Assembly: GCA_945873015.1 (NCBI GenBank)
Contig: CAMCBY010000003.1
Location: forward strand, 1-33,877
Length of the DNA stretch: 33,877 nt
Direction of reading: 5' to 3'
Origin: Klebsiella pneumoniae
GTDB taxonomy: Bacteria > Pseudomonadota > Gammaproteobacteria > Ga0077536
The notes under the pieces are model-generated. The model worked only from the letters and a program-made list of their open reading frames with translations. It was not told the DNA's origin and searched no databases. Position numbers and translations under genes: made by a program. The stretch's first letter is position 1. The number at the start of each line of letters is the position of its first letter. This document shows positions 15,454-28,770 of the stretch, piece after piece.

Positions 15454-15630
15454 CGCCTTGACTCCTGCGCACAGGCGCTTTCCGTGCTCGCCTTGTGATT
15501 GATTCGAGAGGCGTTGATTGTAGCCAAAGCCCGCCGCTACCGGCAGCGCGGCGCACGCGCGGCAAAACCAAGGCCTCGGCTGCCTGCCACTGCCTCTATA
15601 CTAGGCGGACGGCAACTGCCAGGAGTGAAC

Positions 15631-16983
15631 ATGGCGTCTTTCGATTTTGATCTTTTTATTATTGGTGGCGGTTCGGGCGGCGTTCGTGCCGGACGCATGT
15701 CGGCCAGCTTTGGCGCGCGCGTGGCGATGGCCGAAGAACGCTACATGGGCGGCACCTGTGTAAACGTCGGCTGCGTGCCGAAAAAGCTTTTCGCCTATGC
15801 CGCCCACGTGCACGAGGAAGTGCGCGACGCCGCAGGTTTCGGCTGGAAAATCGCCGACGGTAGTTTCGACTGGCCGCTCCTGGTCGCCAACAAGAACAAA
15901 GAAATCGAACGACTGAACGGCATCTACCAGCGTCTGATGGACAACGCCGGCGTCACCGTCATGCATGAACGCGCGACGGTGAAAGATGCCCACACTGTCA
16001 CCGTCGGCGGCCGCGACATTAGCGCCGAGCGTATTCTGGTCGCGACCGGCGGCTGGCCGTATGTGCCGCAGTTCCCCGGCAGCGAACTCGCCATCACTTC
16101 CAACGAAGCTTTCTTTCTCGAACGCTTGCCCAAACGCGCGGTAGTGGTCGGCGGCGGCTATATCGCGGTTGAGTTCGCCGGCATTTTCAACGGGCTTGGC
16201 TGCGACACCACCCAGTTGTATCGCGGCCCCCTGTTCCTGCGCGGCTTTGACGACGACGCCCGTCATTTCCTCGCCGAGGAAATGCGCAAGAAGGGCGTCA
16301 ACTTGCGCTTCGATACCGACATCGTGCGTATCACGGGCGAAACGCACGACCTGCACCTGCACCTGAGTGACGGCACGACGCTTGATGCCGATCTCGTGAT
16401 GTACGCAACCGGGCGCCGACCGAACAGTGCCAATCTCGGTCTGGAAGCCTGCGGTGTGGCGATGGACGACACCGGCGCGGTCAAGGTCAACGCCAATTAC
16501 CAGACCACCGTGCCCTCAATTTATGCCATCGGTGACGTGACCGACAGGGTGAACCTGACGCCGGTTGCGCTCGCCGAAGGCATGGCGCTGGCCTGGCATC
16601 TGTATCGTGATCATGAACGACCGGTAGATTACGAATACATTCCGAGCGCGGTGTTCAGTCATCCTAATCTCGCGACCGTCGGCTACACCGAAGCGCAGGC
16701 GCGTGAGAAGTTCGGCGCCGTGACCATATTCAAATCGACCTTCACGCCGCTCAAACACACCCTGTCCGGCTCCAAGGAAAAGACCTTGATGAAACTGGTG
16801 GTCGAGACCGCCAGTGACAGGGTGGTCGGTGCGCACATGATTGGGCCCGATGCCGGTGAGTCGATACAAGGACTGGCCGTCGCCATCAAGGCCGGAGCGA
16901 CCAAGACTCTGTTCGATCGCACCATCGGCATTCATCCGACCTCCGCTGAGGAATGGGTGACCATGCGCGAGCCTGTGGCCTGA
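15631..16983 (+). CDS. gor: Glutathione-disulfide reductase
   Basis: [19 protein letters not shown] redox disulfide, [28 protein letters not shown] at 15631 follows AGGAG. Confidence 0.95.
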
Positions 16984-17051
16984 GACGCAACACAGAACAT
17001 CTTGTCGTAAACGATTTAGTTTTCTTCAATGTCACCAAGGAGCGAACGCTC

Positions 17052-17591
17052 ATGAGATATCCGAAACTGCGCGCGCTGGCGGCCCTGCTGCTTGGCGCCA
17101 TGACCGCCCTCGGCGGTGGCGCTGCCACGGCGGCCGATCTTGCGGTCGGCGATGTCGCGCCCGACTTCACGCTGGCCGGCTCCGACGGCAAACAGCACCG
17201 GCTGGCCGACTATCGCGGCACGGCGGTGGTGCTGGCCTGGTTCCCGAAAGCCTTCACCGGCGGCTGAACCGCACAATGCAAGTCACTCCGTGAGAGTGGC
17301 GCATTGTTGAAGGGCTACAAGGTCGCCTATTTTATGGCGAGCACTGATGATGTTGAGACCAACACTAAATTTGCCGCCGACAACGGCGCCGACTTCGCCA
17401 TCCTCGCGGACCCTGACAAAAAAGTGTCGGCGGCCTATGGGGTGCTCGGCATGATGGGTTTCGCCTCGCGCTGGACGTTCTATATCGACAAGGACGGCAA
17501 AATTGCCTACATCGATAAAGACGTGAGTGTGGTCAAGGCCGGTGCCGATACGGCCGCGCGCCTCACGACGCTGGGTGTGGAAAAACGCTGA
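17052..17591 (+). CDS. Peroxiredoxin (BCP/PrxQ-like, AhpC/TSA family), predicted selenoprotein (Sec72 = TGA 17265-17267) with signal peptide
   Basis: AAGGAG RBS then ATG 17052. Reads ...[50 protein letters not shown]...[15 protein letters not shown]...[12 protein letters not shown] in one frame. The TGA occupies the C of PxxxTxxC and a SECIS-like hairpin follows. Confidence 0.9.
17273..17307 (+). promoter_or_regulatory. Bacterial SECIS-like element
   Basis: Lower stem ACAATGC/GCATTGT (7 bp), AA bulge, upper stem GTCACTC/GAGTGGC (7 bp, one U-G), apical loop CGUGA separated from the UGA by 21 nt. Confidence 0.8.
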
Positions 17592-17692
17592 GATAGTCAT
17601 TGCGGCGCAATGATGTGCCCGCATAAATTGAGCGCGGGGCGCGGATCGTTTTCACTTTAATGTGCGAATGAATTCGCACCTGCGAGGCTGTC

Positions 17693-18124
17693 ATGACTAC
17701 ATCGAGCGACGACATCACTCTGGTCCGCGACGCTATTCATAACCCCGCCGAGCCGCGTCATTTCATGCGCCTCGCGCGTCCGTCCTATGTCATCACGGCC
17801 AGCCTCGACGGAGTTGAAATCGCGCGCAGCACACGCGCAATCAAACTCAAAGAGGTGGGTCGTGATATCTATGACCCGGCCATTTATTTTCCGCGTGACG
17901 ATGTCGATATGGACAAGCTCACGTCTATCGACAAGTCGACTCACTGTCCGCTCAAGGGCGACGCGGAATATTTCGACGGCGACCTCGCCGGCCGACACCA
18001 CGCTGAGGTCGCGTGGTCCTACAACCGCACCCTCAGCATTGCGGCGGCCATAACGGGCTACATCGCTTTTTATCCGCAACGCGTGCACGTCGTCGAACAC
18101 AGCGCGTCAGCAGTGCCTGCCTGA
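17693..18124 (+). CDS. DUF427 domain-containing protein
   Basis: IARSTRAIKLKE...PAIYFPRDDVDM..L......THCPLKGDAEYF...AWSY......AAITGYIAFY is the DUF427 pattern. Confidence 0.8.
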   Translation: MTTSSDDITLVRDAIHNPAEPRHFMRLARPSYVITASLDGVEIARSTRAIKLKEVGRDIYDPAIYFPRDDVDMDKLTSIDKSTHCPLKGDAEYFDGDLAGRHHAEVAWSYNRTLSIAAAITGYIAFYPQRVHVVEHSASAVPA

Positions 18125-28681: not shown

Positions 28682-28758
28682 TGGCGGAGTGGACGGGACT
28701 CGAACCCGCGACCCCCGGCGTGACAGGCCGGTATTCTAACCAACTGAACTACCACTCC
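28682..28758 (-). tRNA. tRNA-Asp (GTC)
   Basis: 77 nt, GGAGTGG...CCACTCC-GCCA, anticodon arm CCGGC-CTGTCAC-GCCGG, T loop GTTCGAGTC, encoded CCA. Confidence 0.97.
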
Positions 28759-28770
28759 GATGGCTAACTC

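Follow-up and report, generated by a model that had tools for sequence, protein, structure and literature searches.

Bacterial selenocysteine insertion sequence (bSECIS) elements are described by the bSECISearch model of Zhang and Gladyshev, which is summarised in section 5 and the Fig. 2A legend of PMC13188914. In this model, an upper stem of 4–16 bp carries a loop of 3–9 nt, a G within the first two loop positions is usually followed by G or U, the spacing from the UGA to the loop is 16–37 nt, and the minimum free energy (MFE) is -7.5 kcal/mol or lower (PMC13188914). The best characterised elements are those of the Escherichia coli formate dehydrogenase genes fdhF, fdnG and fdoG (PMC13188914). 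Peroxiredoxins that contain selenocysteine (Sec, U) in a TxxU motif appear, in the relevant passages of PMC13188914, PMC1794560 and PMC2398784, as a long-known selenoprotein family. Examples given there include PrxU of Eubacterium acidaminophilum and 253 peroxiredoxin (Prx) selenoproteins in the Global Ocean Sampling (GOS) metagenomes (PMC13188914, PMC2398784), for which the GOS tables set 7,348 cysteine (Cys) forms against the 253 Sec forms (PMC2398784). According to the Fig. 4 legend of PMC1794560, relic SECIS-like hairpins also occur in Cys forms that derive from Sec forms. Here, we analyze a hairpin that follows an in-frame UGA in contig CAMCBY010000003.1 of assembly GCA_945873015.1, listed as Klebsiella pneumoniae with the gammaproteobacterial lineage assignment Ga0077536. 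The hairpin lies at positions 17273–17307 of the 33,877-nucleotide stretch of this contig that was studied (henceforth termed the window), and we conclude with high confidence that it is a bSECIS that lies within the coding sequence of a Sec-containing peroxiredoxin gene.

A hairpin behind an in-frame UGA codon

The element is located in a gene on the forward strand (17052–17591) that encodes an AhpC/TSA peroxiredoxin of the BCP/PrxQ type with 179 residues including Sec, as assigned from Pfam, a Shine-Dalgarno sequence and relatives. When the TGA at 17265–17267 is read as U, a single frame extends from 16953 to 17591, and the Pfam family AhpC-TSA (PF00578) matches residues 65–187 of its translation at 4.9e-30, spanning the TGA. 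The surrounding translation, PKAFTGG-U-TAQC, comprises the motif P98-K-A-F-T102-G-G-U105 followed by T-A-Q-C (numbered from the start at 16953), with Sec at the Cys position of PxxxTxxC. U105 aligns with the active-site-motif Cys of FTQVCT in the solved BCP structure 2ywn, and a second Cys stands four residues past the Sec (U-x3-C). With its PF00578 domain and TxxU motif, the window protein belongs to the Sec-containing peroxiredoxins.

The sequence-only reading from which this work started had described a hairpin separated from the TGA by 5 nt and built from two 7-bp stems, an AA bulge and a CGUGA loop 21 nt from the UGA, a geometry that proved exact to the base. All parts lie on the forward strand. 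A 5-nt spacer, ACCGC (17268–17272), leads, in direct reading of the sequence, from the UGA to the 35-nt hairpin, the lower stem of which pairs ACAAUGC (17273–17279) with GCAUUGU (17301–17307). The AA bulge (17280–17281) separates it from the upper stem, formed by GUCACUC (17282–17288) and GAGUGGC (17294–17300), which closes the apical loop CGUGA (17289–17293), with G at position 2 and U at position 3. The loop thereby begins 21 nt past the UGA, with 17268–17288 intervening. RNAfold returned the same structure for 17273–17307 with an MFE of -16.6 kcal/mol (z = -3.90; none of 200 dinucleotide shuffles equally stable) and gave -8.1 kcal/mol for the upper hairpin alone (17282–17300; z = -2.86; 3 of 200 shuffles). 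The hairpin was also recovered on folding 17265–17320 (-19.1 kcal/mol), a check that had been proposed together with the original description. The identification of the hairpin as an intrinsic terminator was ruled out, as no terminator-like site was found in 16800–17800.

Measured against the published bSECIS model, the hairpin lies within a coding sequence, immediately 3' of an in-frame UGA for which homologues can have a Cys codon (TGC or TGT in 22 of 90 sequences), its loop of 5 nt tops an upper stem of 7 bp, the loop starts with CGU, the spacing is 21 nt, and the MFE is -8.1 kcal/mol for the upper hairpin and -16.6 kcal/mol for 17273–17307. The hairpin falls within all four published constraints of the model.

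Conservation, cysteine homologues and codon usage

A whole-protein search (E ≤ 1e-20) covered the window's own genome and 40 relatives, 41 in total. The gene was found in 20 of them, comprising its own genome and 19 of the 24 others that belong to the same family, and every one of these 20 genomes has TGA at the same codon. In their ungapped 105-column alignment, the upper stem is retained in 20 of 20 sequences and covaries at four of its seven pairs. RNAalifold recovered the upper helix and not the lower one, which among these genomes (own included) is retained mainly within the same genus.

A second, larger set was drawn from metagenomes by means of a pattern in which only FPKAFTGG and the TGA are fixed, so that the downstream sequence is unbiased. 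It yielded at least 120 loci with 117 unique full-length stretches; counts for this set, here and below, hold among the matches listed. At least six of the seven pairs form in register in 109 of the 117 stretches. Across 116 distinct rows, the upper helix is 94.2% paired, and six of its seven pairs show double, compensatory changes, with pair-type counts such as CG 87, GC 24 and UA 1 at one position, GC 62, CG 21 and AU 12 at another, and CG 98 and UA 8 at a third. The covariation score of 0.238 compares with a shuffled mean of 0.112 and was reached by none of 500 shuffles, and slid registers gave at most 0.129. At its column, the U–G pair of the window is seen in 88 of 116 rows, more often than any other type, in keeping with an RNA that is structured on the sense strand. 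The second loop base is G in 116 of 117 stretches and the next is G or U in 115; the loops are CGUGA (59), CGUGC (23), CGGGA (10) and, for the rest, GGGAC, GGGUC and others. The downstream peptide is KSLRESG in 21 cases, KSLRASG in 11, NSLRESG in 10 and KALRDSA in nine, and SLGTS, SFGSN, SFREN and SVRDT occur as well; the peptide thus differs (SLRES, SLRAS, ALRDS, SLGTS, SFGSN, SFREN, SVRDT), yet the pairing is retained. Two metagenome contigs (L169, L195) carry otherwise typical homologues in which the frame is broken past the TGA by single-base indels, probably assembly errors.

Covariation of the stem in TGA-bearing orthologues, a test suggested at the outset, is therefore found for the upper stem only, at four of seven pairs in the 20 genomes and at six of seven in the metagenomic set. 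Judged from these alignments, what the family as a whole conserves is the 7-bp upper stem with its 5-nt loop, and the lower stem is specific to close relatives. The initial description of a 14-bp hairpin accordingly stands for the window, where both stems fold, but must be narrowed to the upper 7 bp and the loop for the family, in which the lower stem is only 35% paired. Compared with flanks shuffled base by base, a procedure that ignores codon structure, the real flanks fold more stably by 3.05 kcal/mol (126 of 164), which lends weak support to a lower stem of variable register around a conserved core.

To these sets we added a scan of genome contigs, which returned 80 loci, most of which bear the titles Gammaproteobacteria, Pseudomonadota, Acidobacteriota or Vicinamibacterales, with others from Planctomycetota, Verrucomicrobiota and Acidimicrobiia. 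Together with the 20 loci of the whole-protein search, 98 of 100 loci carried the motif, and the 90 unique sequences have TGA (68), TGC (20) or TGT (2) at the same column. The loop is CGUGA in 67 of the 68 genomic Sec forms. The 22 Cys forms had been found through an upstream pattern and are unbiased downstream. They retain L, R, E and S at positions +7 to +10 in only 4, 7, 15 and 9 of 22 sequences, respectively. Six or more contiguous in-register pairs are present in 63 of 68 Sec forms versus 1 of 22 Cys forms, and the local MFE is -9.4 kcal/mol in the former versus -4.9 kcal/mol in the latter, so that the loss of the hairpin in Cys orthologues, which the sequence-only reading had named as a test, was indeed observed. 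In a quick maximum-likelihood tree calculated with the Sec/Cys site masked, the Cys forms are nested among Sec forms, with five label changes of which at least four are forced by well-supported branches. Because Cys forms without the stem nest among Sec forms, the hairpin tracks the UGA and not the protein lineage. The upper helix is thus a structure with compensatory changes in TGA-bearing homologues that is not maintained in Cys homologues.

Two observations on individual sequences of this set may be added. A Cys-type sequence from a Verrucomicrobiales metagenome-assembled genome (L102) has TGC followed by a 7-bp in-register stem with the loop CGUGA, probably a relic SECIS left after a Sec-to-Cys change. 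In the quick tree, two Acidimicrobiia sequences and one Myxococcota sequence (loci L016–L115) fall within the Acidobacteriota clade, which suggests transfer or mis-binning.

The hairpin has left its mark on codon choice. A score resembling the codon adaptation index is 0.471 for the 14 codons past the UGA, whereas the gene's 137 other 14-codon windows average 0.771 and none is lower; among 14,312 windows from the long open reading frames (ORFs) of the genome, this value falls into the lowest 4.7%. Rare codons in the hairpin region include TCA (6% of Ser), GCA (10% of Ala), AGT (14%), TTG (15%) and CGT (21%). Among the 68 Sec forms, synonymous diversity at S, L, R, E and S (codons +6 to +10) amounts to 0.14, 0.06, 0.03, 0.03 and 0.25, respectively, while 48 other conserved degenerate columns have a mean of 0.52 and a minimum of 0.16 (Mann-Whitney p = 2e-4). 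Leu is encoded by CTC in 65 of 67 cases, Arg by CGT in 67 of 68 and Glu by GAG in 66 of 67. We attribute the atypical codons to third positions of K-S-L-R-E-S-G that are fixed by the RNA structure. Both halves of the earlier proposal on this point, that the codons past the UGA are atypical for the genome and that the RNA structure constrains them, agree with the codon scores and the frozen synonymous sites.

Sec-decoding machinery and alternative explanations

The genome that contains the window (4.07 Mb in 531 contigs, 93% complete, 61.8% GC) encodes the Sec-decoding machinery selA, selB, selC and selD. selB, on contig C281, scores 431.7 bits against a cut-off of 242 and is adjoined by selA (593.8 bits), the selD match (179.8 bits) is cut by a contig end, and the tRNA-Sec gene was detected with 63.6 bits by the Rfam model and as tRNA-SeC with anticodon tca by ARAGORN. 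Within the window, positions 28685–28759 on the reverse strand give a sub-threshold match to the tRNA-Sec model (31.9 bits), presumably an ordinary tRNA gene. Across the genomes compared, selB exceeds the cut-off in 18 of the 20 that carry the TGA gene (the other two genomes are 80% and 62% complete) and in 3 of the 21 that lack it, a co-occurrence that serves as a consistency check and not as a statistic, since these genomes are kin.

Family searches in the window genome revealed five further genes, supported by Pfam, in which an in-frame TGA falls on a redox motif. Three of these candidate selenoprotein genes are of the AhpC/TSA family, with W-U-P-Y-C (C378:1440–1880, reverse strand), W-U-P-Y-C and two in-frame TGAs (C201:5687–6082, reverse strand) and W-U-G-C (C190:7177–7515, forward strand); the others are SelW-like (C1:40530–40730, forward strand) and AhpD-like with C-H-Y-U (C482:2483–2668, forward strand). 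Their motifs match families in the survey tables of PMC2398784, where Prx-like UxxC, Prx-like UGC, SelW-like CxxU and AhpD-like CxxU proteins are entered. All five genes have a hairpin with a 5-nt N-G-U-N-N loop (UGUAU, AGUUA, CGUGU, CGUGC and GGUCU) on a stem of 5–8 bp, 16–21 nt past the first TGA. The background rate of such hairpins is 140 in 19,617 open-flanked TGAs of the genome (0.71%). The loops shared across these genes would fit a single SelB reading one loop grammar. A naive genome scan for bSECIS-like hairpins after open-flanked TGAs, used for the base rate only, gave 765 loose and 115 strict candidates, which are mostly chance occurrences in a genome of 62% GC. A search of the window genome for a Sec-type formate dehydrogenase alpha subunit gave neither a match above the cut-off nor an in-frame stop.

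The proposal that the hairpin is the recoding signal, made initially from the sequence alone, is supported by its agreement with the bSECIS constraints, by conservation and covariation of the structure, by its linkage to UGA and loss at Cys codons, by frozen synonymous sites, and by the presence of the Sec machinery. From these data, we infer that SelB binds the loop and that Sec is actually inserted. When a ribosome arrives at the UGA at 17265–17267, the mRNA immediately downstream would fold such that the upper stem (17282–17288 with 17294–17300) presents the CGUGA loop 21 nt past the UGA. The G-U of the loop would be bound by the C-terminal part of the SelB encoded in the window genome, and SelB bearing Sec-tRNA(Sec) would thereby be tethered at the A site, leading to insertion of Sec instead of termination. 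Sec would thus take the Cys position of the PxxxTxxC peroxiredoxin motif, and the codons for K-S-L-R-E-S-G would do double duty, specifying both protein and RNA structure. The lower 7-bp stem may add stability within the genus and would lie outside the conserved signal.

Among the alternatives, the one that survives best, although we consider it very improbable, is a structured RNA with a role that does not involve SelB, such as slowing of the ribosome, stabilisation of the mRNA, or near-cognate read-through of the UGA independent of SelB. Stable hairpins 3' of stop codons can generally promote read-through, and a hairpin in this position could act in the same manner. However, the element occurs only with TGA and never with Cys codons, save for the one probable relic, and it co-occurs with selB. 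Its loop, with G followed by U or G, and its spacing are moreover those of the bSECIS model, and the same loop grammar recurs in the five other candidate selenoprotein genes of the genome.

Several observations weigh against a bSECIS. Eight of the 117 metagenomic stretches lack an in-register stem; most of these have a hairpin in another register or a larger (8-nt) loop, and one has an indel. The lower helix, paired in 35.2% across the 116 metagenomic rows, is not conserved, and the 56-nt stretch 17265–17320, at -19.1 kcal/mol, only modestly beats its shuffles (z = -2.09; 8 of 200). An Rfam scan of 16500–18000 with a limit of E ≤ 10 produced no match to the hairpin, and of the models SECIS_1 to SECIS_5 only SECIS_4 gave a row, at 17597–17614, with 17.5 bits against a gathering threshold of 38; the hairpin is hence not a member of a curated RNA family. 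The significance of the shuffle controls and rank tests is overstated because the sequences are related. As to the other candidate genes, the hairpin criterion that all five fit was set after the hairpins had been seen, and the second TGA of the C201 gene has no such hairpin. Finally, the TGA loci of the genomic scan were accessible only to a pattern that includes SLRES, which makes their peptide conservation partly a matter of construction, and solved Cys-type BCPs have FRDS or FRDN at the same place, so that part of the L/F-R-D/E-S conservation may lie at the protein level. Amino acid conservation alone is no evidence for an RNA signal. We have accordingly set aside the conservation of SLRES in the genome-contig set as evidence; the synonymous-site result and the metagenomic set are free of this pattern bias.

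These last points bear on a second alternative, which is somewhat less probable still and already largely refuted: that the hairpin is incidental to a conserved peptide, K-S-L-R-E-S-G, which the protein needs, and has no RNA function. The F-R-D-S/N segments that follow the active site in solved BCPs are similar, and the region lies within a well-conserved domain. Against a purely protein-level cause, third codon positions are frozen far beyond those of equally conserved codons, the peptide changes while double substitutions keep the pairing, and Cys homologues nested among Sec forms vary the peptide freely and lose the stem. The least probable explanation is that the TGA is a true stop, owing to a gene that is split or in decay or to a faulty assembly, and that the downstream frame goes untranslated: under translation table 11, the ORF list does end one ORF at 17267, where standard gene callers would truncate, but the AhpC/TSA domain spans the TGA, the TGA with an intact downstream frame recurs in 68 unique genomic and at least 117 unique metagenomic sequences from several phyla, homologues have Cys at the TGA column, and no downstream start codon or ribosome-binding site need be invoked.

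Gene context and comparison with described elements

The peroxiredoxin gene probably starts at ATG 17052, which is preceded at a distance of 8 nt by AAGGAG (17038–17043) and near which the alignment of relatives begins. The ATG at 16953, the start given in the ORF list, was rejected in favour of 17052 on account of this Shine-Dalgarno sequence and the alignment start; the additional segment (16953–17051) overlaps the end of the upstream gene and is probably unused. N-termini are hydrophobic in all 20 genomes compared, and that of the window protein looks like a signal peptide; the protein appears to be exported. All NCBIfam matches remained under their cut-offs, the best being NF006960 (thioredoxin-dependent thiol peroxidase) with 86.9 bits versus 140. 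At the other end of the gene, the terminal TGA (17589–17591) is a real stop, since relatives end there with TAA, TAG or TGA. For the same reason, the SECIS_4 row at 17597–17614 (17.5 bits, E = 1.3) was rejected as a second recoding site; right past the terminal TGA, an inverted repeat TCATTGCG..CGCAATGA at 17596–17614 gives rise to this weak row. The upstream neighbour on the forward strand (15499–16983) encodes a pyridine-nucleotide disulphide oxidoreductase with Pyr_redox_2 and dimerisation domains and ends 68 nt before the peroxiredoxin start. This oxidoreductase may be a functional partner of the peroxiredoxin.

The hairpin is very probably a typical bacterial SECIS in a Sec-peroxiredoxin, a well-known type of element, and the find, although sound, is ordinary and unsurprising to a specialist; knowledge of the Sec decoding mechanism is unchanged by it. 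It has a direct bearing on annotation, as standard gene callers stop the gene at 17267 and miss a selenoprotein, and the same truncation would affect no fewer than five further candidate genes for selenoproteins in this genome, which comes from an uncultured gammaproteobacterium. The locus also offers a clean case, rich in data, in which an overlapping RNA signal has shaped a coding sequence, with frozen synonymous sites, rare codons and a stem-dictated peptide that relaxes once a Cys codon replaces the UGA. A curated RNA family for SECIS elements of this type could be built from the large covarying alignment.

Set beside the bSECIS model, the window hairpin is the same in kind and differs in being unusually conserved in sequence, with UCGCUC-CGUGA-GAGCGG or close variants. 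Cores of this type occur in records titled Gammaproteobacteria, Acidobacteriota, Acidimicrobiia and Deltaproteobacteria, the last of which is Myxococcota in the tree. The core and its covarying variants may constitute a distinct bSECIS family, present in at least four phyla and absent from Rfam. Likewise, six selenoprotein genes of the window genome may follow a strict grammar, with an N-G-U-N-N loop on a stem of at least 5 bp, 16–21 nt past the UGA. The two proposals can be joined, tentatively and at a likelihood that we put a little short of even, into a reading in which BCP-type Sec-peroxiredoxins have their own sequence-conserved bSECIS family and the NGU-loop grammar is the recognition code of SelB in this lineage. 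If this were true, the grammar would be tight enough to predict the whole selenoproteome of the lineage from sequence, and the repeated Sec-to-Cys switches with immediate relaxation of SLRES would amount to a natural experiment on an RNA signal dictating protein sequence.

The SECIS elements of the E. coli formate dehydrogenase genes resemble the window hairpin in their position just past the UGA and in the G-U of the apical loop, the presumed SelB contact. They differ in having a single bulged U where the window has an AA bulge and in their loop and stem sequences; the host gene is another one, and there is no sequence similarity. L102, the Verrucomicrobiales relative described above, resembles the relics in the Fig. 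4 legend of PMC1794560 in combining a Cys codon with a SECIS-like hairpin. With the Sec-containing peroxiredoxin family, the window protein shares the AhpC/TSA domain and a Sec in place of the Cys in PxxxTxxC. It is not orthologous to PrxU, as the PrxU equivalog NF040737 reaches 40.1 bits against a cut-off of 270, and belongs to the BCP/PrxQ branch, where it is set apart from the described Sec-peroxiredoxins by a second Cys in U-x3-C and a signal-peptide-like N-terminus.

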